A stretch of DNA of 32,000 nucleotides from Candidatus Saccharimonadota bacterium (GCA_963718045.1 OY970350.1:30001-62000); one strand, 5' to 3'. Positions 250 through 21,357 are shown, counted from the stretch's first letter. Numbers and translations are program-made. The notes: generated by a model from the sequence alone, not told the origin.

Positions 250-1299
250 ATGATCACTAGCCTAAAGGTTCAAAACTTCCGCTCCTATCTGAACAGCTTG
301 TTTAACTTCAGCCCATCAGCCAATATTATTGTTGGGCCAAATACTGCCGGGAAAACTAATATTTTAGAAGCCATACTTTTCTCACGAACCGGCTCGTCTT
401 ACCGGGCTAAAGATTTGGAGCTAATACGCTTTAAAAAGAGCTGGTTAAGGATTGAATGCGAAGATGATGGCAGTAAAAGGATAATTAAGGTCAGGAATGA
501 CCAAAAACCCAACAAAACATATGAGATTAATGGCAAGCAATATAATAGACTGCCCATTAGTTTAAAACTGCCGGTAGTAATATTTGAACCCAACCACTTA
601 CAGCTTCTTAGTGGCTCGCCTGAAAAGAGGCGCAACTACCTTGATTCTTTCCTGGCCCAGCTGGCAAGCGAATACCCTTCTCTTATTAGAAAGTATGCCC
701 GCGCTCTCGCTCAGCGAAACTCCTTACTTAAAAGGCCGGTTGGTATAACAAATTCCCAATTATTCCCCTGGAATATTCGTTTGAGCCAATTGGCCGGGCA
801 GGTAGTCCAGGCAAGAAACAACCTTATTGTTGAGATAAACAAGACCCTGCCGGATATATATATGGGTCTTTCTAAAGATAAGGTTAGACTTTTAATGACA
901 TATAAAACACAGTTTGACCCTAGAATGTACGAGACTTCTTATTTGAAACAGCTGGAGAGTGATTTAGAGGACGACTTAAGAACCGGCTTTACGCTTCACG
1001 GCCCGCATCGTGATGATTTCACTGTTCTATATAATAATCATCCATCCACGAGCTATGCTTCGAGGGGTGAGCTTAGGACTGCTGTTTTGGCCCTAAAAAT
1101 AACTGAACTTAATAAGCTAGATAATATTAAAGGCACTAAACCAGTGATACTGCTAGATGATGTATATAGTGAACTCGATAGTGTTAGGAGAAAGTCGTTA
1201 ACCGGCTATTTGAAAGACAATCAATCCTTTATTACTACGACAGACGCTGACGTGGTCTTAAAAAATCTGGATATTAAAAGTAAAGTTATTGAACTGTAG
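250..1299 (+). CDS. recF: DNA replication/repair protein RecF
   Basis: 349 aa. It has Walker A GPNTAGKTN near the N-terminus, an SMC/ABC-like signature SRGELRT and Walker B VILLDDVYSELD. It lies immediately downstream of dnaN. Confidence 0.9.
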   Translation: MITSLKVQNFRSYLNSLFNFSPSANIIVGPNTAGKTNILEAILFSRTGSSYRAKDLELIRFKKSWLRIECEDDGSKRIIKVRNDQKPNKTYEINGKQYNRLPISLKLPVVIFEPNHLQLLSGSPEKRRNYLDSFLAQLASEYPSLIRKYARALAQRNSLLKRPVGITNSQLFPWNIRLSQLAGQVVQARNNLIVEINKTLPDIYMGLSKDKVRLLMTYKTQFDPRMYETSYLKQLESDLEDDLRTGFTLHGPHRDDFTVLYNNHPSTSYASRGELRTAVLALKITELNKLDNIKGTKPVILLDDVYSELDSVRRKSLTGYLKDNQSFITTTDADVVLKNLDIKSKVIEL

Positions 1300-3268
1300 G
1301 CTGAGACGGCGGAGTACCAGCGGGGTTGATGTCTACTGTTTGTTCTACAGGCGACGCAGGACCAGCAGGTGTTACTGCTGGTCTTTCCCTGTCATAAAGG
1401 GATACTGGCGCTACATTCTGGCTGTTATCAACACCCGGGGTAGTAGTTATGAGGCTTGTTTCTGTCGGGCTGGCAACAACTTGGATATGGACATGGTTTT
1501 GGCCAGCAAAGAATAATCCCTGGCCGACCGGGAACTGGCTTAATCTCTTTTTCTCTTCGCTGGTTAACTTAAAAACATCAGACAGTACATCTACCGCTGA
1601 AGTAGACTGTTTAAGCAGAAACTGCATCGAAGCGTTAGCCACGACTGCCCTGCCCATTCTGGAACCCATAAAGTCTTCAACATCCTGGGTAACGGTCGTA
1701 ACTCCTAAATTATATTTTCTGGCTCTTTTAGCCAGACTATATAAGAAATTGGCTGAGTCCTCATACTTCATTAACTGCCAAGCTTCATCAATAATTAAGA
1801 TCCGGCGTTTTTGGTCTATCTTTGTCTTGTTCCAAATGTAATTTAAGACGATGTACATAGCGACAGGCCTTAGCTCATCTTCAAGATCGCGAATATTAAA
1901 TACTGCCATGGGGTTATTAATGTTTATATTTGACTGCTGGGAGAAAATACCGGAGAAGGTGCCGGTTGTATACTTTCTTAACCTTTGGGCTAACTGCGGA
2001 CCGTTACCGCCCATATGCAGCAGTGTGTCATAAAGGTCATTTATAGTTGGCGGCTGTGAACGGTGAGTCAGCGGGTCATTAGTAATGCCAGCCCTCGCAT
2101 AGGCCTCAATTAGAGCAGCATCCAGGTCCGCCTCTTCACTGGGAGCCAGTACTGGTACGGCTGTTGCCGCACCACCTAACATCTGAGTCTGGGCACCACC
2201 CATCATCAGTCTGAGCAGTCCATGAAGTGTAATAAGGTTACTGCGGAGGGCATTGTCCGCCTCTTCAGTATCGACTACTTCCGGTAGGTCGAAAGGATTA
2301 ATTCTGGTCGCCGAGCTGAGGCTTAACCGGACATAAGCTCCGCCAACGGCATCACACATTTTCTGGTATTCATTTTCCGGGTCAATAATGAATATTTCAG
2401 TACCGAACATCATACTTCTTAAAGCTTCTAGTTTTACAAGGAAAGATTTCCCGGCTCCAGACTTTGCAAATACAACTGAGTTGCCATTTTCCAGAGAGAA
2501 CCTATCAAATATTACCAGGCCTGAATTATGCATATTAATGCCGTATAAAATACCGCTGTCCTGGCTTAAGTCAGCGCTGGTGAATGGGAAACTAGTGCTT
2601 AGTGCTCCAGTGCTCATGTTCCTTCTAATTTGCAGCAGGTCAGTCATTTGGGGGACTGTACTGTTAAAAGCTTGTTCTTGCTGAGAAGTGGCCGGTTTTG
2701 AATAAACAAGCTGTTGGCCAAGTAGTGACTCAACTTTATGGCTAACAAATTCCAGTTCTTCCATGTCGCCGGCGTAAATTGTGAAATAAAAGCCAAAGCG
2801 GAAGAACCTTTCCTCTCCCACCTGCAGTTTATCCCGCATCTCTTCGGCATCTAATATGGCCGCCTGTTTTTCCGGGTCCCTGACCCTGCCCTTGTCGGTG
2901 TCTATTTGAATACCGGCTTCAAGTCTGGTAACTTTCTTTTTTAAATTCTCAAGTACTACCCTGCTTTCTACCGGGTAGATATACAAACTAAGATCCATAA
3001 CTTCATCCAGGTTGACCATCCCAGACAGCCAACCGGTGTATAGATTTCGCGGGTACCCATATACGTAGTAAGTGCGGGCGTATCTTGTACCCAGCAAGAA
3101 GTATGTTGAACTATATTCAAGTGAGCTGGGGGCAATAAAATCCCGAAGTGCGGTGATACCCTTTTGGTAAGCTGTCTCAACCTCATGCTCTTCTTGTTGC
3201 TGATGCTGTTGGGCAATGGTTACCGGATCAACGCTTGAAGTTGCACTTTTATTCTTAAAAATAGCCAT
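1286..3268 (-). CDS. virB4: Type IV secretion system ATPase, VirB4/TrbE/PrgJ family
   Basis: 660 aa. It has Walker A FAKSGAGKSFLV and Walker B RILIIDEAWQLM. Its length and the long N-terminal domain before the P-loop are typical of VirB4-type ATPases. An SD-like AAGGGAG lies upstream of the ATG at 3268. The C-terminal tail is proline-rich. The gene overlaps the recF 3' end by 14 nt (convergent). Confidence 0.88.
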   Translation of the reverse strand: MAIFKNKSATSSVDPVTIAQQHQQQEEHEVETAYQKGITALRDFIAPSSLEYSSTYFLLGTRYARTYYVYGYPRNLYTGWLSGMVNLDEVMDLSLYIYPVESRVVLENLKKKVTRLEAGIQIDTDKGRVRDPEKQAAILDAEEMRDKLQVGEERFFRFGFYFTIYAGDMEELEFVSHKVESLLGQQLVYSKPATSQQEQAFNSTVPQMTDLLQIRRNMSTGALSTSFPFTSADLSQDSGILYGINMHNSGLVIFDRFSLENGNSVVFAKSGAGKSFLVKLEALRSMMFGTEIFIIDPENEYQKMCDAVGGAYVRLSLSSATRINPFDLPEVVDTEEADNALRSNLITLHGLLRLMMGGAQTQMLGGAATAVPVLAPSEEADLDAALIEAYARAGITNDPLTHRSQPPTINDLYDTLLHMGGNGPQLAQRLRKYTTGTFSGIFSQQSNININNPMAVFNIRDLEDELRPVAMYIVLNYIWNKTKIDQKRRILIIDEAWQLMKYEDSANFLYSLAKRARKYNLGVTTVTQDVEDFMGSRMGRAVVANASMQFLLKQSTSAVDVLSDVFKLTSEEKKRLSQFPVGQGLFFAGQNHVHIQVVASPTETSLITTTPGVDNSQNVAPVSLYDRERPAVTPAGPASPVEQTVDINPAGTPPSQPTVQ

Positions 3269-3269
3269 C

Positions 3270-4142
3270 TTACTCTAGCTCCCTTTGCAAGTGGCTTTGA
3301 GGGGCAGTGCCCTCACCCTTAGTTATTACGTCAGCTGAAAGATCGTCAAAGTTTTTAAGCTGCTGGCGAGTAGCAGTATCTGGGTTATATGTGTCGTAGT
3401 AAAGCTCAATTAATTCCTGTGTATCTAGAGGCAGGCCCTGAATATTACATTGGGCTAAGGCTGCTAGGATTGCCTGTACTCTGTTTCTAAGCTCTGTTTT
3501 AGCTTGTTCAAGATCTTCTTCGTTTATAACAACGTGCTGTTCCTTGGTATTGAATAGGCCGACTAAACCAGTTAGAAAATTCTTACTTTCGGTTAGTGCC
3601 TTTTGGATATCTTCATGCGGGAAGAACGGGATGACTACATAGAACTTCTTATCCATAATGTTTGTCTGCTGGCTTAAAGAATCCATATAATTGATGTAAT
3701 CTTCCATTAATAGGGCAAGCAGCATATTGTCGTGTTCAGTCCGAATTTTGTCCAGTCTTTCTATATAAGGCTGTAGATCAACTTTTTGAGTCCTGACAAA
3801 TATTTGAATGGTAAAGTAAAGAGAATTCAAAAATCCCTGGTATGAATATTCAACAGCTTCCTGTTCTTGGGTGCTCATCAGATCAAAGTTAATACTTTTT
3901 ACCATGATGACAGACCTAAAAGAGCCGTCGTTCATTATTACTATGCCGTCTCTTATCTCAGCGATTTGGAGTGTATTTTGAGTGCTATTAGGGTTGGTTT
4001 TAGGTTTTGGCTGGGCAGGAAGCTGCCCCGCTACTGGCTGATAACTAGGTGTGTAGCTAGGCGGTACAGGCGGTAAATTAGCACTACCCGGTAAGCCGGT
4101 TACGGCTGGTGTTGCTTGATTTATATTGTTTGTTGGATCCAT
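3270..4142 (-). CDS. Hypothetical T4SS-associated protein (Pro-rich N-terminal tail; body reminiscent of a VirB4 N-terminal domain)
   Basis: 290-aa ORF packed between the PrgI-like gene and virB4 (1 nt from the virB4 start). An SD-like AGGTGGG lies before the ATG at 4142. The first ~60 aa are P/Q/T-rich and low complexity. The function is inferred only from position and pattern resemblance. Confidence 0.7.
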   Translation of the reverse strand: MDPTNNINQATPAVTGLPGSANLPPVPPSYTPSYQPVAGQLPAQPKPKTNPNSTQNTLQIAEIRDGIVIMNDGSFRSVIMVKSINFDLMSTQEQEAVEYSYQGFLNSLYFTIQIFVRTQKVDLQPYIERLDKIRTEHDNMLLALLMEDYINYMDSLSQQTNIMDKKFYVVIPFFPHEDIQKALTESKNFLTGLVGLFNTKEQHVVINEEDLEQAKTELRNRVQAILAALAQCNIQGLPLDTQELIELYYDTYNPDTATRQQLKNFDDLSADVITKGEGTAPQSHLQRELE

Positions 4143-4159
4143 AGCCCACCTATATCTAA

Positions 4160-5164
4160 TTAATGAGGTATTAAGACTTCAACCATGCCGGTGTTATCTG
4201 GTTTGGCCCTGTCGGCTTCTTTAGAAATAACACTGACGTTTAAGTCGTTTCTTTTCGATAAGTTCATTATAACAGGATCAGGCTGAGGAGCGGCTAGCGG
4301 TGGTTCCGGAGCTATTACGGCAGCTGGTTTACTACGAGTCTTGGCTACTTTGCTTCTTAAAGCGTGCATATTGCTTAAAGGTGCACGGCTTGACTGGTAG
4401 GCATCCTTAAGTTCGGCGTCTATTTCACGTTCAAAAGAAGGTGACACGGCAGCTGTAGGTTGCTTAGGGGTACCTATGACTAGTGGTTCTTTATGCCTTT
4501 TTGCTACTTCAGCCCTAGTTTCATTCAGATTATCTATTAACTCCCGGTGTCTTAAGCTGGTGTCAGCTGACAGCATTCTATTAAACTGCTGGGCAATTGG
4601 ATTAGCTAAATCATTAAATAGGTCTTCTGAGTCGGGGACATCATATTCTGGCACTGCCTGAGGTAAAGTAGCCGGGCTAATTAACCTGTCTGAATCTTCA
4701 TCGTCATTAACAAGTGGCGACTGATAGGCGACATTTACGTTCTTAATAGCCCACCCGCGGCTATCTATAGTAGAAGCCAGAGCCTGAAGTCTTGATTTTA
4801 CTTCATTTTGCGATAGGCCATTAGTTTTTTGCATTTCAATTTTCTTCGGAACTGTTATGGTAACTAGTTCTTTAACACCGCTTTGGGCCCAGATACGGTG
4901 CCTTGGTTTTAAGAAAAACCTTAGTTTAGAAAGAGCCCATAATTCGGTCGGCTGGTCTTTACCAAAAGGATAAGCTAAGAACCCGGCAAACAAAGCTATT
5001 GGCATGGTGACAATGTCTAAAATCCCAGCGTGATGTGCAAAAAGGACATAACTAATATAAAGCATGAATAAGGCTGCCAAGGCATAGACAAATTGTTTGA
5101 AACTTAAAGGACCTAGAAGTTTGTCATCAGCTTCAACATCTTGGATAAGCTTATATGTTGCCAT
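4160..5164 (-). CDS. PrgI/VirB3-like T4SS membrane protein with long C-terminal extension
   Basis: I start it at ATG 5164 (MATYKLIQDVEADDKLLGPLSFKQFVYALAALFMLYISYVL...), not at the ORF-track start of 5419. The N-terminus has the PrgI-family pattern: an acidic stretch, K-L-L-G-P-L-S-F-K-Q-F, then two TM helices. The 85-codon upstream extension overlaps the divergent pilin gene and its promoter. A TATACT box lies 9 nt upstream of the ATG. Confidence 0.72.
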   Translation of the reverse strand: MATYKLIQDVEADDKLLGPLSFKQFVYALAALFMLYISYVLFAHHAGILDIVTMPIALFAGFLAYPFGKDQPTELWALSKLRFFLKPRHRIWAQSGVKELVTITVPKKIEMQKTNGLSQNEVKSRLQALASTIDSRGWAIKNVNVAYQSPLVNDDEDSDRLISPATLPQAVPEYDVPDSEDLFNDLANPIAQQFNRMLSADTSLRHRELIDNLNETRAEVAKRHKEPLVIGTPKQPTAAVSPSFEREIDAELKDAYQSSRAPLSNMHALRSKVAKTRSKPAAVIAPEPPLAAPQPDPVIMNLSKRNDLNVSVISKEADRAKPDNTGMVEVLIPH

Positions 5165-5222
5165 ATAACAATAAGTATAACACCTTGTATGAGAGCAAAT
5201 ATAAGGATATAATTTGATCAAA

Positions 5223-5753
5223 ATGGCAGCCAAAAAACTAAAACATTTTAAAACGCGTAAACTTTTACTCCTACCCTTTTTAGTTATAAGTCTGTTTTTC
5301 GTTATTGGCAGTTTCAGTTTGGCAAAGACAAACTCTCTATTAAACGAAAGTTGTCCCAGGGGAGCTAGCTGCCAGATATCCAATATTCGTTTAGCAAATG
5401 GGTGTGGTGCTGGCAGCACCTATGTGAAGACTAGTATTAATTTTGGTTGTTATGGCAACGGCTGTGGTAGTTCAACTACTGGCTATGCATCGACTAGTTA
5501 CTGTTCCAATCCTCACAATGGTATTGTTGATCTCTTGTTTGCCATCATCAGATTTTTATCCGATGGTGTTGGTCTAGTAGTAATAGTGTCAGTAATTATT
5601 GGCGGGATACAATACATCACATCACGAGGTGACCCTAATGCCACAGGAGCGGCCATAAAGAGACTTACCTCAGCCCTGACTGCATTACTTATCTTTATAT
5701 TTGCTTACGCAATACTTAATTATGTAATACCAGTAGGATTCTTTAAGCAATGA
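5223..5753 (+). CDS. VirB2/TrbC-like T4SS pilin paralog 1 (enlarged Gly/Cys-rich head, 6 Cys)
   Basis: ATG 5223 is preferred over the TTG at 5214. It has a signal-like N-terminus (KLLLLPFLVISLFFVIGSFSLA) and a Cys/Gly-rich segment. This is followed by TM1, the loop GGIQYITSRGDPNATGAAIKR and TM2, the hairpin typical of VirB2/TrbC pilins. Confidence 0.72.
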   Translation: MAAKKLKHFKTRKLLLLPFLVISLFFVIGSFSLAKTNSLLNESCPRGASCQISNIRLANGCGAGSTYVKTSINFGCYGNGCGSSTTGYASTSYCSNPHNGIVDLLFAIIRFLSDGVGLVVIVSVIIGGIQYITSRGDPNATGAAIKRLTSALTALLIFIFAYAILNYVIPVGFFKQ

Positions 5754-6112
5754 ATTTAGGACAAATATTACTCAACCAGCATTTTGCAGCAGCTTGCGTG
5801 CAAAATAAATTTTTAAACTTTCCAACCTGGTATGAATATTTATCCTGCACAGGTTCACCGAAATCCCCGGAGTTAACCAGTCTTTCAGACATCTGGCTTA
5901 TTGTTGCCGCTATAGTAGAAATACTGCTTCGGGTAGCCGCCCTAGCTGCTATTGGCATCATAATTTATGCCGGTATTCAGTACTCAACCAGCCAAGGCAA
6001 ACCGCAGGAAACTTCTAAAGCCCTAAGCACAATAATAAATGCGGCTATTGGTCTTACTGTATGTATTTTGTCGGCCGTAATTGTAACCTTCATTGCCGGG
6101 AGCTTTAAATGA
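5750..6112 (+). CDS. VirB2/TrbC-like T4SS pilin paralog 2
   Basis: 120 aa. Its start overlaps the upstream stop (ATGA). The core is AAIGIIIYAGIQYSTSQGKPQETSKALSTIINAAIGL, flanked by two hydrophobic helices. The N-terminal part carries a Cys pair. Confidence 0.7.
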   Translation: MNLGQILLNQHFAAACVQNKFLNFPTWYEYLSCTGSPKSPELTSLSDIWLIVAAIVEILLRVAALAAIGIIIYAGIQYSTSQGKPQETSKALSTIINAAIGLTVCILSAVIVTFIAGSFK

Positions 6113-6429
6113 TCCCATCAATTTTTCTAAGATTACTTGCATCATCTACAGTTTCTGTTAACTGTCCTGGCGACGGGACCTGTGATACTGGTTTGCCGAA
6201 AGTTACCGCTGATTCAAGTGCGCTCCATACGGCTCTTGAGATATTCTTCGGTATAGCCGCTGTCATATCTGTATTAATGATCGTTATTGGCGGCTTGAGT
6301 TTTGTAACTTCAGGCGGCAAACCGGAAGAAGCTGCAAAAGCCAGAGAGACTATCATCTATGCCGCTATTGGCCTGCTTGTTTCTTTAAGTGCCGAAGCGG
6401 TTGTAGCATTTGTGTTAGGGAAGTTATGA
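6109..6429 (+). CDS. VirB2/TrbC-like T4SS pilin paralog 3
   Basis: 106 aa, with an ATGA start/stop overlap and SD-like GGGAG upstream. The core is VLMIVIGGLSFVTSGGKPEEAAKARETIIYAAIGL. The Cys pair is in NCPGDGTC. Confidence 0.7.
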   Translation: MIPSIFLRLLASSTVSVNCPGDGTCDTGLPKVTADSSALHTALEIFFGIAAVISVLMIVIGGLSFVTSGGKPEEAAKARETIIYAAIGLLVSLSAEAVVAFVLGKL

Positions 6430-6821
6430 AAAAAGTAATATTATCCATCATTTTATTAATGTTAACTACCCTGTCTTTTAGCCAGCCAGCTTTTGCCGTT
6501 AACATTTTCCAAAGCTGTACTAATGGCGTACTAGCCGGTAAGCATACCGATGTCTGTAGTGCTGTAGCAACACAGCAAAAAAATGGTAATCCAGATCCAA
6601 TTCTGGTGGCCCTAAAGACCACTATTGATGTCATATCATACATTATCGGTGTTGCTGCCGTTATTGTTTTAATTATTGCCAGTATTGAGATGATTATTGG
6701 CGGGGGTGATGCTCAAGCTATAGCTACCGCCAGAAACTCAATTATATACGCCCTTGTAGGTATTGTTGTTGCTGTACTAGCCCAGTCAATCGTAGTTTTC
6801 GTATTAAAGAACGTAGCGTAA
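6426..6821 (+). CDS. VirB2/TrbC-like T4SS pilin paralog 4
   Basis: 131 aa, with an ATGA overlap. It has a clear signal peptide MKKVILSIILLMLTTLSFSQPAFA and a Cys pair (SCTNG...DVCS). The core is LIIASIEMIIGGGDAQAIATARNSIIYALVGI. Confidence 0.75.
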   Translation: MKKVILSIILLMLTTLSFSQPAFAVNIFQSCTNGVLAGKHTDVCSAVATQQKNGNPDPILVALKTTIDVISYIIGVAAVIVLIIASIEMIIGGGDAQAIATARNSIIYALVGIVVAVLAQSIVVFVLKNVA

Positions 6822-6822
6822 A

Positions 6823-7260
6823 ATGTTTAAGGTGAAATATTTCAAAATAATTGTGGCTGTAATCACTATTGTGACCATGTTTTCTGCTACCCTTAACTAT
6901 GCCTCTGCCGATTCTTTTGTTGGTGAGGCCTGTAATGGCATAAAAAGCATATCGACTACGGCCAGCTGTACTAAATCCAACGTATTACAAAGCACTGCCC
7001 ATAAAGTGGTCAATATTATGTCCATAGTTGTAGGACTTATTTCAGTAATAATGTTACTGGTAGCTGGTATAAAGTTTGTTACGGCCGGAGGTGATTCGAA
7101 CTCTGTTCAATCAGCCAGGAATACTCTCATATATGCGCTAATAGGTGTATTTATTGCTGTACTTGCTCAGGTGCTTGTTCGCACGGTATTAAATACGGCC
7201 ACTTCAATCCAGAATAATAGTTACCTTAACACATCCTCAGTTATTAAAAATGATGTTTAA
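6823..7260 (+). CDS. VirB2/TrbC-like T4SS pilin paralog 5 (S/T/N-rich C-terminal tail)
   Basis: 145 aa, starting 1 nt after the paralog 4 stop. The signal peptide ends in ...NYASA and the Cys pair is EACNG...ASCTK. The core is KVVNIMSIVVGLISVIMLLVAGIKFVTAGGDSNSVQSARNTLIYALIGV. Confidence 0.75.
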   Translation: MFKVKYFKIIVAVITIVTMFSATLNYASADSFVGEACNGIKSISTTASCTKSNVLQSTAHKVVNIMSIVVGLISVIMLLVAGIKFVTAGGDSNSVQSARNTLIYALIGVFIAVLAQVLVRTVLNTATSIQNNSYLNTSSVIKNDV

Positions 7261-7343
7261 AAACACTATTAATTTATTGTAGAATTATGTACTATTGGAA
7301 ATATGGATAAAAAACCTAAAATAACTAACCTGGGGGGTTAATA

Positions 7344-7787
7344 ATGTTAGATATATTAAAAAGTAAACTTTTAATCATCGTGGCTGCACTTATGATGAGT
7401 ATTCCGGTGATAGTTCCAATTCAGGTGTCAGCTAGTGTCAAATGTGATAATATAGGCGGCCAGATAAACAACGGCATTAACTCTGCTGTTAGTAGTAATG
7501 TTGCCTGTGGTACTGGTGGGAGTATCGATACTGGCGTAGAATCACTGGCTAAAAAAGTAGTCAATATCTTTTCCTTAGTTGTAGGTGTTATCTCAGTAAT
7601 AATGATCATTTACGCTGGACTGAGATACATAACTTCTGGCGGAGAGAGTGGTGGAGTATCAGGAGCAAAAAATACTCTTCTCTATGCGGTTATTGGTTTG
7701 ATTATAGTTATCCTAGCTCAAGTTATAGTTAGAATCGTTCTTAACCAAGGCACCAGTATTAGCAACACTGTAACTTCTGGCACTTAA
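7344..7787 (+). CDS. VirB2/TrbC-like T4SS pilin paralog 6 (S/T-rich C-terminal tail)
   Basis: 147 aa, with its own SD (GGGGGG, 7333-7338) after an 83-nt gap. It has a signal-like N-terminus and a Cys pair (VKCDN...VACGT). The core KVVNIFSLVVGVISVIMIIYAGLRYITSGGESGGVSGAKNTLLYAVIGL is nearly identical to that of paralog 5. Confidence 0.75.
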   Translation: MLDILKSKLLIIVAALMMSIPVIVPIQVSASVKCDNIGGQINNGINSAVSSNVACGTGGSIDTGVESLAKKVVNIFSLVVGVISVIMIIYAGLRYITSGGESGGVSGAKNTLLYAVIGLIIVILAQVIVRIVLNQGTSISNTVTSGT

Positions 7788-9031
7788 CTCTGGACGTAAG
7801 TAGTTAATAAGTAGAAGTTTGTAACACCTGATCCTAGTAGAAGTATTTTCATGCCTGTAGAGAGATTACCGGTATTCTTACGGTAAATCATCATTAGCGC
7901 CAGGAAGAGGGTTGGCATGAAGTCGAGAGTATAGCGGTAGCCAAGCTGGTCTGCCCCATCGCCGAAATAGCAGAGTACTATCAAAAGACCGACTAATGAA
8001 GAAATAACTAAGTATTTAGCCTCTTTGGGATATTTTGACCATCTTTTGGTAAAGAAATATAAAAGCCACGGTGAAGTAATAAAGATACTTACACCCAACA
8101 TGTTATTTTCTACCCACGGGAATTTCAGGCTCCATGAACTGCTTGAGGCTAGTTCCTGTGACGGTGCCCTAAAGAGTAAGGTATATAAGTTAGTTGGGAT
8201 GTGATCCAATGAGAAAACACCCATTGATCTTGCTTCAGAAGAGCCCTGAGATAACAGCTGATATTGGTTGCCGTTATCTAGAGGGCTGCCAAATCTTTGC
8301 AGGTTATATACTCCCATAAGCAAGACGGCTAAGACTACGAATACTCCCAACTGGAACAACTCTTTAAACTTGACTCTCCATTCTTTCTTAGCCATGGCTA
8401 TAGCAATAACGTAAAATACTAAAATACTAGCTGCCGGTATTCTGGTTAGCAGTAAACAGGCAGACAATAGTCCTATTAACCACCACCTTTTCCTGTTCAT
8501 ATATTCATATAACGACCACAAGGCCAATAGTGTGGCAACAATCTGGGCATATAGCCAGCCGCTTGAAACACTACCGACGCCCATAAAGACTGAACCTAAG
8601 GTAAAACCAAACATCCAAATCAGACTATCTGTGGCCGAAAAGCCAAGCTTTCGGGCCATTTTATATACCAAGTAGCTAATACTTAAAATTATCAGCCACT
8701 TTATATATCCCTGATAGAAAAATATGTGCCAGATATTAAAGAAGGCTACAAAAGGCATTAATATAACAGCCGGGAATGGGCCTTCATCCCAGTAAACCTT
8801 GCCATTGTAAAGAACGGGGTCTTGCCCTACCCCGCCGATAGATTGAAGGAAATAAGTGTGCCCGTGATCAAACGAATTAGCAAGAAGTGAAAACTGCTGG
8901 CTGCCTTCAGCAGCAAAGCCAACACATATGAGGGTAATATATAAGATAATTGGTACGCAAAAAATCAGAATCTTTTTAGTCGTGCTTTTATCTACTACGA
9001 AAGTTTTTTTCTGGAATAGTTTTTCTTTCAA
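7784..9031 (-). CDS. Polytopic membrane protein, GT-C-fold glycosyltransferase-like (ArnT/PMT-type)
   Basis: 415 aa with roughly 10 or more hydrophobic helices. The first extracytoplasmic loop has the pattern DPVLYNGKVYWDEGPFPAVILMP seen in ArnT/PMT-like GT-C enzymes. It uses a TTG start at 9031 preceded by SD GAGGTGG. Family assignment is by pattern recognition only. Confidence 0.55.
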   Translation of the reverse strand: MKEKLFQKKTFVVDKSTTKKILIFCVPIILYITLICVGFAAEGSQQFSLLANSFDHGHTYFLQSIGGVGQDPVLYNGKVYWDEGPFPAVILMPFVAFFNIWHIFFYQGYIKWLIILSISYLVYKMARKLGFSATDSLIWMFGFTLGSVFMGVGSVSSGWLYAQIVATLLALWSLYEYMNRKRWWLIGLLSACLLLTRIPAASILVFYVIAIAMAKKEWRVKFKELFQLGVFVVLAVLLMGVYNLQRFGSPLDNGNQYQLLSQGSSEARSMGVFSLDHIPTNLYTLLFRAPSQELASSSSWSLKFPWVENNMLGVSIFITSPWLLYFFTKRWSKYPKEAKYLVISSLVGLLIVLCYFGDGADQLGYRYTLDFMPTLFLALMMIYRKNTGNLSTGMKILLLGSGVTNFYLLTTYVQS

Positions 9032-9556: not shown

Positions 9557-9599
9557 AGTTACCCTCCAAAATTTATATACCTTACTTTTTAGGGTTACT
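9557..9599 (-). promoter_or_regulatory. Candidate SD-sequestering hairpin (RNA-thermometer-like) in the hsp20 5' UTR
   Basis: On the mRNA strand, AGUAACCCU (9599-9591) can pair with AGGGUAACU (9565-9557), giving 8 of 9 bp with one A-A mismatch. This covers 4 of the 6 SD nucleotides. An A5/U4 pair of runs inside the loop could extend an imperfect stem. Confidence 0.35.
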
Positions 9600-9739: not shown

Positions 9740-10297
9740 ATGGCCATATCAAAGAGTGAGGATAAGGGTTTTAGCTTTAACGCAAATAAAGACAAAGAAG
9801 ATAAAGAGAATGCTTTTCAGCCTGATGGCAAAAACGAAGAGCCGTTATTTAACTGGTCTTCACCAAATGGCTTTTCTAACAGCAAGAACATTATCTGGTA
9901 CCTTGTGTTAATAATCGTTACCTTAGGTCTTTCCGCTTTGATATATTTTTCCACTAAAGATAAGATAACCACGGCTGTCATTATTGTCAGCGGCATACTT
10001 ATCGGTATTTATGCTTCAAAGAAACCTCGTGTTGTTAATTACCAATTAACTCCAAACGGCTTTACAGTAAACGGCCGTTACTATAACTTCAGTAGTTACC
10101 GCTCATTTTCAGTAGTCCATCACGGTGGCTCAAGCAGTGTTGTGCTTACGCCGCTTAAAAGATTTATGCCATATATGTACATTTATTTCTCTGATGACAT
10201 GGCAGAGAAAATAGAAGCTGTTCTCACAGGGGTATTACCCAAGGAAACATCGCGCCAAGATTTCATAGATAACTTACTCAGGAAGATTGGCTTTTAG
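9740..10297 (+). CDS. Hypothetical membrane protein (two TM helices plus C-terminal soluble domain, possibly bacterial PH-like)
   Basis: 185 aa. It has a charged N-terminus, two TM helices (IIWYLVLIIVTLGLSALIYF and TTAVIIVSGILIGIYA) and then a domain of about 90 aa. TAGAAT (9728-9733) lies 6 nt upstream of the ATG and there is no SD. Confidence 0.65.
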   Translation: MAISKSEDKGFSFNANKDKEDKENAFQPDGKNEEPLFNWSSPNGFSNSKNIIWYLVLIIVTLGLSALIYFSTKDKITTAVIIVSGILIGIYASKKPRVVNYQLTPNGFTVNGRYYNFSSYRSFSVVHHGGSSSVVLTPLKRFMPYMYIYFSDDMAEKIEAVLTGVLPKETSRQDFIDNLLRKIGF

Positions 10298-10453: not shown

Positions 10454-10531
10454 GCGCCCGTAGCTCAGCTGGATTAGAGCGCATCCTTGCGGAGGATGAG
10501 GTCGTAGGTTCGAATCCTATCGGGCGTACCA
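10454..10531 (+). tRNA. tRNA-Arg (anticodon GCG), CCA encoded
   Basis: It folds by hand. The acceptor is GCGCCCG/CGGGCGT (G1-U72), the D-arm is GCTC-AGCTGGATTA-GAGC, and the anticodon arm is CATCC-TTGCGGA-GGATG (anticodon GCG). The T-arm is GTAGG-TTCGAAT-CCTAT, with discriminator A and a terminal CCA. Confidence 0.88.
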
Positions 10532-10601
10532 TTTGTAGATAAAGGCACATAAAATGTAAAATCGTTAATTTCCCTCTATTTCTATAATTATTAACGGAAT
10601 A

Positions 10602-10630
10602 TTGACATTAATACGTTAATTTAGTATACT
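10602..10630 (+). promoter_or_regulatory. Predicted Fic promoter, TTGACA-17-TATACT, leaderless geometry
   Basis: TTGACA (10602-10607) is separated by a 17-nt spacer from TATACT (10625-10630), which is followed by 6 nt and then ATG 10637. There is no SD. Confidence 0.6.
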
Positions 10631-10636
10631 CTAAAT

Positions 10637-11506
10637 ATGATTAGTACATATAATCGAAACAGAATTGCTAGGCTCAAAAAAGAATTCGAGCAACTTAGAA
10701 TTGGCAAAGATTCGCTGCTCATTTTATTAGAGGAAGCCGAGCTACCAGAATTAGTATATAACTCTAACGCTATTGAAAACTCTACCCTAACACTTAAAGA
10801 GACAGAGCGAATATTACTTGAACTTGAAGTTGCTAGGAATGTAAGCGTACGGGAATTATTTGAGGCCAGAAACCTAGCTAGAGTTATTGAATATTTGCAA
10901 AATCATCAAAACCTCGAGATCAACAAAGAAAATATCCTTTTGTTACACCGAATGCTTATAGGTGGCATTAAGGATGAGATCGCCGGAAGATTTAGGAGAA
11001 ATGACGAATATGTGCGCGTTGGAACGCATATAGCTCCTGCCCCGGAACATATTGAGCAATTGCTTGATAATCTTTTGGTTGAATATAGGAGCGCGGATAA
11101 TAGTTATTTTATAGACCGTATTACATACTTCCACTTGGAATTCGAACGCATTCATCCATTTGTCGATGGTAATGGACGGATTGGGAGAGTACTGCTAAAT
11201 TTACAGCTCAAACAACTTGGTTATCCACCAGTTATTATCCGAAGTAAGGGCAAGATCGATTATTATTATCCGGCATTTATTGAATATCAGGAGCTCAAAC
11301 ATACTAGTCGGATGGAGCATTTGGTTATGTTAGCAACTATCGAATCCTTGAATAAACGTTTAACATATTTACGCGGGCAAAACGCAGTAAAACTTGCTGA
11401 CTATGCTAAGACAAAAAAACAATCCATAAATACCCTTATCAATGCTGCTCGGAGGCAAACAATTCCTGCCTTTCGAGAAAAGGGTGTTTGGAAAATTGGA
11501 ATATAA
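10637..11506 (+). CDS. Fic family protein (class II, intramolecular inhibitory motif), with C-terminal excisionase-like HTH
   Basis: 289 aa. It has the Fic active-site motif HPFVDGNGRIGR and an N-terminal inhibitory-helix motif SNAIEN, which matches (S/T)xxxE(G/N). The C-terminus KLADYAKTKKQSINTLINAARRQTIPAFREKGVWKI resembles an excisionase/MerR-type HTH. Confidence 0.88.
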   Translation: MISTYNRNRIARLKKEFEQLRIGKDSLLILLEEAELPELVYNSNAIENSTLTLKETERILLELEVARNVSVRELFEARNLARVIEYLQNHQNLEINKENILLLHRMLIGGIKDEIAGRFRRNDEYVRVGTHIAPAPEHIEQLLDNLLVEYRSADNSYFIDRITYFHLEFERIHPFVDGNGRIGRVLLNLQLKQLGYPPVIIRSKGKIDYYYPAFIEYQELKHTSRMEHLVMLATIESLNKRLTYLRGQNAVKLADYAKTKKQSINTLINAARRQTIPAFREKGVWKIGI

Positions 11507-19108: not shown

Positions 19109-20473
19109 ATGGGTCTTCGCTCTACTGTTAAGAAAGTCATACCAGCAAAAGTATTTAGTGCCGTTGAACCTTACGGCCACTGGCTGGAAGCAATACTTGA
19201 AAATATATTATTCGGCTTCCCAATGCGGGGGCTTAAAGTTATAGGTGTAACAGGTACGGCAGGGAAGACTACAACCTGTACTTTAGTCAGCCACATAATG
19301 AAAGAATCCGGCTTAAAAGTTGCCACGATGACTACTGTTTCTATAGATTACGGTGACGGCAAAGGACCACGACACAATACTACCAGGATGACATCTTTAG
19401 GATCGTACCAGCTTCTAAAAGCTGCTAAGAGGATCAAATCTAATGGTGTAGAGTGGTTAGTTCTGGAAACTACTTCCCAGGCTACGGCCCAGCACCGTGT
19501 CTTCGCAGTTCCTTTTACCATCGTCGGCTATACCAATCTTGGCCACGATAATTTCCATTACCACATTACTTTTGAGAAATACAGGGCAGCTAAGCTGATG
19601 CTCTTTAAGCAAGCCAACAGGCACTTGAACGGCTTAAGAGTCGGTGTCGTTAACATCGATGATGAGAACGGCAAGTATTTTGTTAAAGCAATAAAACATC
19701 CCCTGACTTACGGACTAAAAAAGGGTGACCTAACAGCAACAGACCTAGAGCTAACAGCCAGCGGCAGTAAATTCAAGGCCGTTATAGGTGATGACGTATA
19801 CGATATTAAATCTAATCTGCCAGGGGAATTTAACGTCTATAACTGCTTAGCGGCAATTGGCATTACAAGAAGTGTTGGTCTAAGCAAAGAACAGATAGAG
19901 AGCGGGATTACTAGTTTAAAAAGCGTTGAAGGACGGATGAATAGCATCGAAGAAGGTCAAGACTTTGGTGTTATTGTCGATTACGCTGCTACGCCGGTGA
20001 GCTTTAATCAAGTGTTTGCCACTGTTAAACCCCTCGTTAAAGGGCGAATAATTACCATTTTTGGCTCAGCCGGGAGAAGAGATGAACTTAAAAGGTCCAT
20101 TCAAGGTGAAATTGCCGGTAAGCATTCAGATATTGTTATCCTGACCGAAGAGGATGATAGAGATCAGGAAGGACTGAAAATTTTGGAAGAGATAGCTATC
20201 GGGGCAGAGAAGTCAGGTAAGAAAAAGGGCAGGGATCTATTTCTAATCCACGACCGCAAAGAAGCTGTCGAAAAGGCAATTGGAATGGCAAAAACAGATG
20301 ATCTGGTCCTTCTTTTAGGCAAGGGAGAAGAAACAGTCATTATTACTAATAAGCCTGGTTTTAAACCATCTCCCGGGCATATTTTTAACGAGGGCACGGA
20401 TACCATAACGGTGCCATACAACGAAACGGCTACGGCCAGAGCAGCTCTTAAGAAGATCAATCCTAAAAACTAA
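19109..20473 (+). CDS. Mur ligase family protein, MurE-like (short N-terminal region)
   Basis: 454 aa. It has the P-loop GVTGTAGKTTT at residues ~47-56, NLGHDNFHYHITFEKYRAAK (compare MurE DHLDYH..Y..AK), GSAGRRDELKR and LLLGKGEE (compare GKGHE). Only about 45 aa precede the P-loop. Confidence 0.72.
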   Translation: MGLRSTVKKVIPAKVFSAVEPYGHWLEAILENILFGFPMRGLKVIGVTGTAGKTTTCTLVSHIMKESGLKVATMTTVSIDYGDGKGPRHNTTRMTSLGSYQLLKAAKRIKSNGVEWLVLETTSQATAQHRVFAVPFTIVGYTNLGHDNFHYHITFEKYRAAKLMLFKQANRHLNGLRVGVVNIDDENGKYFVKAIKHPLTYGLKKGDLTATDLELTASGSKFKAVIGDDVYDIKSNLPGEFNVYNCLAAIGITRSVGLSKEQIESGITSLKSVEGRMNSIEEGQDFGVIVDYAATPVSFNQVFATVKPLVKGRIITIFGSAGRRDELKRSIQGEIAGKHSDIVILTEEDDRDQEGLKILEEIAIGAEKSGKKKGRDLFLIHDRKEAVEKAIGMAKTDDLVLLLGKGEETVIITNKPGFKPSPGHIFNEGTDTITVPYNETATARAALKKINPKN

Positions 20474-21357
20474 TCTAAAGTTAGACTAGAACAGCGGATA
20501 GAACCGCCACCTTTTTTAAGTTCCGGCAGATCTAGCTCGATAACTTTTAGGCCGTGTTTAACAAGATTAGCTTTAAATTTTGGTGCGCCGCTATTCATGA
20601 TAACTATTTCACCGGTCGAAACTAGGTTGGGGGCATAAGCTTTAAGTGCTTCATCCTTAGAAATAATTATCTTATTAAAGCCTTTTAAATCTTTCAGGAT
20701 CTTACGGCTTGGCCACTTAAAGAGCTTAGGACAGTAAGCGATTAGGGGAGGGGAATTATCGATTCCCGACTTAATAACAGCTAGGGCAAGATCAAGGTCG
20801 AATGTTGGGCTATCTGGCCAACCAGTTATTTTATTATTCTTAGCTGGACCAAATTTAAACCATCGCTGCGGCTTGGTATTAAGCGAGTAGACTTTTTTAA
20901 AACCCAGCAAATTTTTAACTATCGGGTGGGCAGCCCTAGATGTCCGATAAGGCGATTGGACAAACAATACATCATCACAAACTAAACTGTCTCCTTGACC
21001 GCTATAGGCCTGGATGCTCTCTGGCAGTTCGTGAAGTTCGAGCCCTAAATCTGACAAATGCTGCTTGGCTATCGGTTCCTCCGGTTTTCTTTTATTAGGA
21101 AGTCTTGCCAGCACCGCCTCACCAGCTCTAACAAGGGCCCAATTGGCTGTATAAACGCCGTCCTGCATTCCTTTAGGAGCGCCAACTTCAATAACTTTAA
21201 TGCCAGCTTTTTTAAAGGCTTTTACAATTGACTGGTGTTCTTTTATGGCTTGATCTACATCAACAGATAAGGAAGAGTCCATTAAGGCATTAATGGCATC
21301 TTTATCTGTAAAATAGTTTGCACCAGATACTAAAACAGTCTTATTTATTAATGGCAT
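20470..21357 (-). CDS. Amidinotransferase-fold enzyme (DDAH / arginine-deiminase-related)
   Basis: 295 aa. The C-terminal catalytic-Cys motif KKGGGSIRCSSLTL is typical of the guanidino-group-modifying enzyme superfamily. It is too short for a canonical ArcA. Confidence 0.62.
   Translation of the reverse strand: MPLINKTVLVSGANYFTDKDAINALMDSSLSVDVDQAIKEHQSIVKAFKKAGIKVIEVGAPKGMQDGVYTANWALVRAGEAVLARLPNKRKPEEPIAKQHLSDLGLELHELPESIQAYSGQGDSLVCDDVLFVQSPYRTSRAAHPIVKNLLGFKKVYSLNTKPQRWFKFGPAKNNKITGWPDSPTFDLDLALAVIKSGIDNSPPLIAYCPKLFKWPSRKILKDLKGFNKIIISKDEALKAYAPNLVSTGEIVIMNSGAPKFKANLVKHGLKVIELDLPELKKGGGSIRCSSLTLD

Follow-up and report, generated by a model that had tools for sequence, protein, structure and literature searches.

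The DNA stretch analyzed here comprises 32,000 nucleotides from a Candidatus Saccharimonadota bacterium (GCA_963718045.1, OY970350.1:30001-62000; hereafter the window, with positions counted from its first letter) and carries nine genes related to type IV secretion systems (T4SSs). This locus is the syntenic orthologue of SEML1_0008-0010 (encoding VirB4, TrsD, and PrgI) and SEML1_0014-0019 (encoding six pilins) in Southlakia epibionticum. We put a probability of roughly 0.8 on the interpretation that it represents the T4SS core that a Saccharimonadales bacterium carries on its chromosome near the replication origin, a figure that also covers the mechanism proposed below.

Open reading frame (ORF) calling on the window found all nine T4SS ORFs at the coordinates given in a first-pass annotation, which had been made from the sequence alone, and the same nine gene models are present in independent gene calls on five public contigs with an identical VirB4. 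Both sources of gene calls also agree with the two operons proposed in that annotation, which diverge over a 58-bp intergenic region (5165-5222) between prgI and the first pilin gene. This region presumably holds both divergent promoters; a scan for sigma-70 consensus sequences found no site within 5165-5222, and the promoter and terminator scan overall returned no more sites than shuffled sequence did. One of the five contigs is 832 kb long, and on this contig the T4SS locus adjoins recF-dnaN-dnaA, with rnpA and yidC further out. Both dnaN and dnaA lie within ~3 kb of virB4, and dnaA is ~3 kb from the locus; this gene neighborhood places the locus next to the replication origin. Within the window, the 3' end of recF (250-1299) shares 14 bp with the 3' end of virB4. 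As the first-pass annotation had judged by eye, the base composition of the locus resembles that of its flanks (GC content of 0.38-0.46 inside and 0.37-0.46 outside).

The first gene of interest on the minus strand (1286-3268) encodes a VirB4-type ATPase of 660 amino acids (aa). The protein matched the NCBIfam model conju_CD1110 (NF045971) with 345 bits, above the cutoff of 325, over model positions 172-734 of 752, and it also matched PF19044 (E 2.6e-28). Both ATPase motifs recognized previously are intact, with Walker A (GAGKSF) at aa 271-276 (2441-2458) and Walker B (IIDEAW) at aa 492-497 (1778-1795). A search of the PDB identified the C-terminal domain of the monoderm Thermoanaerobacter VirB4 (4AG5, E 3.6e-46) as the nearest solved relative. 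Judging from its sequence matches, this VirB4 appears to be of the monoderm (MPF_FATA-related) type and close to other Saccharimonadia VirB4 proteins.

The adjacent gene (3270-4142, minus strand) encodes a 290-aa protein that had been listed as an unknown; we identify it as a TrsD-like protein, that is, a stand-alone homologue of the VirB4 N-domain. It matched the TrsD/TraD model NF041427 (E 1.5e-8) and, in their N-terminal regions, three VirB4 models, namely VirB4_plasma at positions 98-252 (E 1e-6), CD1110 at positions 2-120 (E 2.8e-6), and TIGR00929 at positions 19-167, with every NCBIfam score below its curated cutoff. In public gene calls, the protein is assigned to PF26593 (TraC-like), and it had no sequence match in the PDB. 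As a homologue of the VirB4 N-domain, the TrsD-like protein forms a split VirB4 together with the 660-aa protein, as in pGO1.

The third gene of the minus-strand operon (4160-5164) encodes an extended PrgI/VirB3-like membrane protein of 334 aa, and its gene model is confirmed by the public gene calls. In agreement with its earlier assignment, the protein matched PF12666 with 31.6 bits (gathering score 27) over aa 8-91. Hydropathy analysis indicated a hydrophobic stretch at ~aa 24-67, followed by a hydrophilic tail of ~240 aa. A longer, GTG-started ORF (4160-5419) runs into the first pilin gene and was rejected as an open-frame artefact.

The plus-strand operon contains six small ORFs whose products are paralogues with pairwise identities of 24-46%: paralogue 1 (176 aa; 5223-5753), paralogue 2 (120 aa; 5750-6112), paralogue 3 (106 aa; 6109-6429), paralogue 4 (131 aa; 6426-6821), paralogue 5 (145 aa; 6823-7260), and paralogue 6 (147 aa; 7344-7787), the last two being 46% identical to each other. 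The first-pass annotation described all six as VirB2/TrbC-like pilins. With the Pfam family T4SS_pilin (PF18895; gathering score 26.6), this description holds for five of the six, as paralogues 2 through 6 scored 39.9, 45.5, 36.8, 47.3, and 41.7 bits, respectively. Paralogue 1 is pilin-like but remained below the gathering score at 23.9 bits; despite this score, it aligns across the same C-terminal hydrophobic hairpin as the other five. All six proteins fell below the gathering score of the TrbC family PF04956 (27.9); the best match was that of paralogue 6 at 27.8 bits, and paralogue 4 reached 22.7 bits.

Based on alignment and hydropathy, all six proteins end in paired long hydrophobic helices separated by a short Gly-rich loop. 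Two cysteines precede the first helix in paralogues 2-6, whereas paralogue 1 has six; this protein combines a signal-like N-terminus, a six-cysteine extracellular segment, and the C-terminal hydrophobic hairpin, and it is a candidate for a specialised (minor or tip) subunit. A simple hydropathy window detected no clear N-terminal hydrophobic leader in paralogues 2 and 3. AlphaFold2, given an alignment of the six paralogues, modeled paralogue 6 with a helical hairpin at residues 61-97 and 102-145; the predicted local distance difference test score (pLDDT) was 72-79 in the hairpin, and the mean over the model was 58.8. A sequence search of the PDB with a profile of the pilins returned no match.

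The arrangement of these genes closely follows that reported for S. epibionticum (ML1). In the tables of Wang 2023 (PMC10633639), the ML1 region begins with dnaA, dnaN, recF, four genes, VirB4, an 882-bp gene, and PrgI, and it continues with three genes that include TrbL/VirB6-like genes, six PF18895 pilins, hsp20, one gene, and tRNA-Ser. The present locus shares with ML1 its chromosomal setting, with dnaA-dnaN-recF to one side and hsp20 followed by tRNA-Ser to the other, one operon with VirB4, a TrsD-like protein of ~290 aa, and a PrgI protein of ~300 aa, six divergent PF18895 pilins, and a cluster with no relaxase or coupling protein. ML1 differs in that the interval from prgI to the pilins (SEML1_0011-0013) encodes an NTF2-like protein and two large VirB6-like/T4SS proteins, and in that virB4 is followed by a 3.3-kb gene, a lysozyme gene, a PEGA protein gene, and one more gene (SEML1_0004-0007); the window has none of these. 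Wang 2023 described the cluster SEML1_0006-0019 as resembling Gram-positive conjugative T4SSs, yet with essential pilins and without coupling and relaxase proteins. Their transposon sequencing found VirB4, TrsD, PrgI, and all six pilins of ML1 to be essential for epibiotic growth, and it is from this orthologue in the literature that we take the evidence on essentiality.

The first-pass annotation considered the architecture to be the novel aspect of this locus. However, the combination of six divergent pilins, TrsD, PrgI, no relaxase, and an origin-proximal site is already published: McLean 2020, Wang 2023, Quinonero-Coronel 2025 (PMC12102498), and a 2025 review of T4SSs all describe it. McLean 2020 reported a conserved Saccharibacteria region with VirB4, VirB6, and VirB2 homologues and an array of 4-6 small proteins with signal peptides. 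The Quinonero-Coronel survey describes a distinct Patescibacteria VirB4 clade related to MPF_FATA, with TrsD as the commonest partner and PrgI/VirB3; 441 pilin arrays of 2-11 genes, which are abundant in Saccharimonadia; few relaxases; and dnaA/dnaN nearby. The locus in the window is like the systems in that survey in its MPF_FATA-related VirB4, TrsD, PrgI/VirB3, VirB2-like array, lack of a relaxase, and proximity to dnaA/dnaN. The 2025 review regards these systems as unique among monoderms in their essentiality and their potential to build pili.

We identified more than 551 relatives in GTDB species genomes; in the best 80, VirB4 is 79-88% identical to that of the window. Nearly all of these 80 are labelled as Saccharimonadales/Saccharibacteria metagenome-assembled genomes, and a few are mis-binned or carry no label. 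Among the ~80 fetched genomes, most of those whose contigs reach far enough have the genes in the order recF, virB4-trsD-prgI, divergent pilins, and hsp20; the comparison of synteny proposed in the first-pass annotation shows a gene order that recurs among Saccharimonadales. Exactly six pilin ORFs were present in 38 of the 59 GTDB loci with enough upstream sequence, and among complete arrays in a separate JGI set, bounded by hsp20 and a VirB6-like gene, 34 of 39 had six pilins and the other five had seven. Across 33 related arrays, we found orthologues by position for paralogues 1, 2, and 6 in all 33 and for paralogue 3 in 31; at positions 4 and 5, the counterpart in the window was the best match in 20 of 33. 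This one-to-one correspondence of the six paralogues by position in different species is an addition of the present analysis, as are the far stronger conservation of VirB4 than of the adjacent recF and the compact clade described below. Together with the individual essentiality of the six pilins in ML1, this fixed and positionally conserved set suggests that the six are non-redundant parts of a single structure and not antigenic variants that can replace one another. Quinonero-Coronel 2025 instead suggests that such arrays allow the use of various host strains; the fixed six here points more to non-redundant subunits.

Median aa identity to the 33 related species was 79% for VirB4, 66% for TrsD, 64% for hsp20, 48% for recF, and 28-43% for the pilins. 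Synonymous sites were saturated, which blocked dN/dS ratios for most genes, and we therefore used non-synonymous divergence (dN) alone. Within the clade of close relatives described below, dN was 0.14 for VirB4 and 0.14-0.19 for TrsD, compared with 0.53-0.55 for recF. On these divergences, VirB4 and TrsD are under strong purifying selection.

Rather than being structural pilins, the six small proteins might be effector or toxin subunits that are secreted through Sec and exported by the T4SS, comparable to Bordetella ptx/ptl. McLean 2020 first presented the array members as small hypothetical proteins that carry signal peptides at their N-termini, later work still uses the term "effector clusters" for such arrays, a Patescibacteria T4SS pilus has yet to be isolated, and our fold search gave no significant match to solved pilins. 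However, five of the six proteins exceed the T4SS_pilin threshold and one comes within 0.1 bits of the TrbC/VirB2 threshold, all six carry a VirB2-style membrane hairpin that soluble toxins do not have, and the array keeps a fixed complement of six members that are orthologous by position. On balance, we consider it improbable that these proteins are exported effectors.

When each large ORF of the 32 kb was searched against Pfam, none matched a relaxase, VirD4, VirB11, VirB6, VirB8, hydrolase, or integrase; for relaxases and VirD4/TcpA coupling proteins, neither Pfam nor NCBIfam domains were present in any large ORF of the window, and a repeat search found no direct repeats flanking the locus. 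These results match what the first-pass annotation had reported missing, including terminal repeats, and they bear on the possibility that an integrative conjugative element (ICE) includes the locus or left it behind as a remnant. The nearest curated VirB4 families do come from conjugative elements of Firmicutes and Mycoplasma, and a strain-variable site is located at a tRNA-Arg gene 2.7 kb away. However, the composition is uniform across a window in which relaxase, coupling protein, integrase, and flanking repeats are all lacking; the fetched species genomes repeatedly have the locus at this chromosomal site, beside recF/dnaN/dnaA and hsp20; VirB4 is better conserved than the adjacent recF; and the variable segment starts only past tRNA-Arg, leaving the T4SS genes outside it. 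We consider either relation to an ICE extremely unlikely. Because the same gene order and site recur across relatives, ~3 kb from dnaA, we conclude that the locus is chromosomal and non-mobile and is not an ICE, as had been proposed when it was called domesticated rather than conjugative. The remainder of the window encodes housekeeping functions: recF, hsp20, two tRNAs, Fic, LytR, a class I (Ile/Leu/Met/Val-type) tRNA synthetase, TsaD, a Mur ligase, GroEL, PGI, ArgRS, MsrB, and DnaG.

The first-pass annotation also described the locus as pared-down. This is accurate for a small clade that includes the window species, whereas most relatives have VirB6-like and hydrolase genes. In most relatives, 3-4 kb separate the first pilin gene from prgI, and this interval encodes a polytopic protein of 800-1300 aa with a weak TrbL/VirB6 match (E 0.003-0.009), which public annotation assigns to PF19590 (TrbL_3). 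After virB4, most relatives encode a protein of ~1000 aa (BIG) with VanY, amidase, or beta-lactamase-like domains, as well as a Phage_lysozyme2/CHAP protein and a PEGA or Ig-like protein. The window species and three others (L018, L054, and L012) share a compact nine-gene layout, and L018, L054, and L012 cluster with the window on a neighbor-joining tree of VirB4. A further species, L077, branches apart near the midpoint root of this tree, and its VirB6-like gene follows virB4. The window species, L018, and L054 each have the nine ORFs in intact form; the L012 contig stops inside the first pilin gene. The nine genes kept in the compact layout are exactly those marked as "core family" and "Patescibacteria enriched" in Table S1 of Wang 2023. 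The compact clade is a minor variant of a known system; neither this clade nor the one-to-one orthology of the six paralogues was seen in the consulted portion of Quinonero-Coronel 2025.

We propose the following mechanism for the T4SS core, in which pilus assembly, pilin extraction by VirB4, and the nature of the substrate are the conjectural parts. Sec would insert the six VirB2-like proteins into the cytoplasmic membrane as hairpins of two helices, and the VirB3-like PrgI and the separate TrsD N-domain would hold the VirB4 ATPase at the membrane. VirB4 would then pull out the pilins and polymerise them into a heteromeric filament or tube that passes through the wall toward the host bacterium. 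This extraction step is modelled on the VirB4 of Agrobacterium. The apparatus would serve epibiotic growth rather than conjugation, possibly by moving macromolecules between parasite and host, through either import or effector export. A 2026 preprint reported tubular structures at the Patescibacteria-host interface that may be T4SS pili.

Several observations weigh against the interpretation of the nine genes as a working, filament-building T4SS core. Neither the window nor the ±10 kb around the locus in the window species, L018, L054, and L012 contains VirB6-like or hydrolase genes, and yet both kinds of gene are essential in ML1 (Wang 2023; PMC10633639). We detected no VirB6-like gene on the known contigs of the window species or of L018 among the best 120 matches per query, which is a weak negative. 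Some other Patescibacteria carry their VirB6-like genes away from the core; however, the two genomes in which we observed this (L141 and L147, described below) are not close relatives of the window species. A Foldseek search of the PDB with the low-confidence model of paralogue 6 returned nothing at E ≤ 0.001, only generic helical hairpins. Finally, the literature contains no Patescibacteria T4SS with a demonstrated filament, substrate, or transport direction.

The absence of VirB6-like and hydrolase genes from the window does not show that they are absent from the genome. For the database searches, the VirB6-like queries were a full-length profile, a core profile, and the L077 protein, and the matches to the core profile were mostly fragments; seven VirB6-like candidates that we checked in context all belonged to canonical loci of other species. 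In two genomes of the JGI set (L141 and L147), VirB6-like, BIG, and lysozyme genes occur with no core genes close by. These accessory loci (L141, 9164-17910; L147, 7420-15534) comprise a VirB6-like gene, genes for proteins of ~270 aa and ~800-900 aa, a lysozyme/CHAP gene, and an Ig-like gene; their neighbors are a P-type ATPase gene and a triple-YbjQ gene, and there is no prgI, trsD, virB4, or pilin gene within 7-10 kb. This arrangement shows that the T4SS gene set can be split over two chromosomal sites in some Patescibacteria. We consider it fairly likely that in the compact clade the flanking VirB6-like, hydrolase, lysozyme, and PEGA genes have been relocated elsewhere in the genome; that they have truly been lost or replaced seems rather unlikely, and the probability that is left falls to genes that have diverged past detection.

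Loss of the VirB6-like channel and wall hydrolases could also mean that the system of this clade is a non-functional or reduced leftover. Such a reading would fit the finding that the lysozyme, PEGA, and BIG genes are, like those for VirB6-like proteins, missing from the window and ±10 kb in the same four species, and it would also fit the lack of a VirB6-like candidate in this clade among the matches listed in our database searches. However, the nine ORFs are intact in three of these species and the ATPase motifs have been kept. In addition, VirB4 and TrsD have diverged at non-synonymous sites about one-quarter as far as recF, while their synonymous sites are saturated. Conservation of this kind would not have survived decay, which argues against a leftover, and we regard this explanation as very unlikely. 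In another version of the loss scenario, which we consider doubtful, the VirB6-like and hydrolase genes have been lost and the nine-gene core (VirB3-like protein, split VirB4, and six pilins) is a self-sufficient minimal machine for building pili; if true, this would be the smallest working T4SS-derived apparatus known.

Among known systems other than that of ML1, the Trs system of the Staphylococcus plasmids pGO1/pSK41 (MPF_FATA subclass, TrsC/TrsD/TrsE) is like the locus in the window in having a split VirB4, consisting of a TrsD N-domain and a TrsE ATPase, and a small VirB3-like membrane protein. According to the Quinonero-Coronel survey (PMC12102498), pGO1/pSK41 Trs has no recognisable VirB6 homologue either. 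Unlike the system described here, Trs is plasmid-borne and conjugative, with a relaxase, a coupling protein, and the TrsG hydrolase, and it has no VirB2-like pilins.

The first-pass annotation held that monoderm conjugation systems normally lack VirB2 pilins, and matches to a Mycoplasma ICE hint at exceptions. All six small ORFs weakly matched the Mbov_0395 pilin-like family (NF045849), with E values between 1e-6 and 5e-5, and the model of the Mycoplasma ICE ATPase Mbov_0397 matched VirB4 with 252.7 bits and the TrsD-like protein with 26.8 bits; all of these matches are under cutoffs. The Mycoplasma ICE thus appears to share a pilin-like protein and a VirB4 within a monoderm T4SS, and, as a lead only, Patescibacteria may not be the sole monoderms whose systems include VirB2-like proteins. 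Unlike the genes in the window, those of the Mycoplasma ICE are on a mobile element and, going by the family name, include a single pilin-like gene rather than six.

The Saccharibacteria T4SS is among the few machines shown to be essential for an epibiotic lifestyle, and the window adds another orthologue of this known system. The fixed set of six pilins, the constrained VirB4 and TrsD, and the natural compact variant together argue for a heteromeric filament with non-redundant subunits. In the compact variant, the core is separated from the VirB6/hydrolase module, and the three results together also mark the genes that travel with one another.

Downstream of the pilins, a gene on the minus strand (7784-9031) encodes a polytopic membrane protein of 415 aa that resembles DUF2079 and putative glycosyltransferase proteins (PF09852, E 1.1e-5; NF047440, E 5e-5; both below cutoffs). 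The gene is convergent with that of paralogue 6, with a 4-bp overlap, and among the GTDB loci only those of L018, L054, and the window species have it in the interval from pilin 6 to hsp20; similar genes lie beyond hsp20 in four canonical JGI loci. A PDB sequence search with the protein returned nothing useful. We considered this protein as a stand-in for VirB6 and rejected it, as the profiles it matches represent a putative glycosyltransferase family and similar genes occur near hsp20 in canonical loci that already have a VirB6-like gene. It is probably not part of the T4SS, and a role in glycosylation of the pilins or envelope would be pure speculation.

A 25-nucleotide inverted repeat (8167-8191 and 9570-9594) is 92% complementary, and none would be expected by chance. 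One arm is located in the 5' leader of hsp20, just upstream of the ribosome-binding site, and the other is within the DUF2079-like gene on the opposite strand. We found this repeat solely in contigs of the window species. Adjacent to hsp20, the gene mem185 (9740-10297, plus strand) encodes a 185-aa protein with two adjacent hydrophobic helices and no family match, and it is kept next to hsp20 in many related loci.

The strain-variable site noted above is located between tRNA-Arg and Fic (10531-10637). Up to the end of tRNA-Arg, the window and the public contigs are 99.7-99.99% identical. In ERZ25039519 (L090, 6433-10001), a segment of ~3.4 kb that is absent from the window precedes Fic and contains ApbE and a gene for a 510-aa NQR/flavin-reductase-like protein. 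In ERZ25039466 (L093, 1-10000), a phage/defence-like block with a terminase, two DNA methyltransferases, and SduA_C abuts Fic. The site looks like an integration hot spot beside tRNA genes that is separate from the T4SS.

Further along the window, a gene on the minus strand (20470-21357) encodes a 295-aa protein with matches to DDAH and the arginine-deiminase superfamily. Arginine catabolism is another function reported to be essential in Saccharibacteria.

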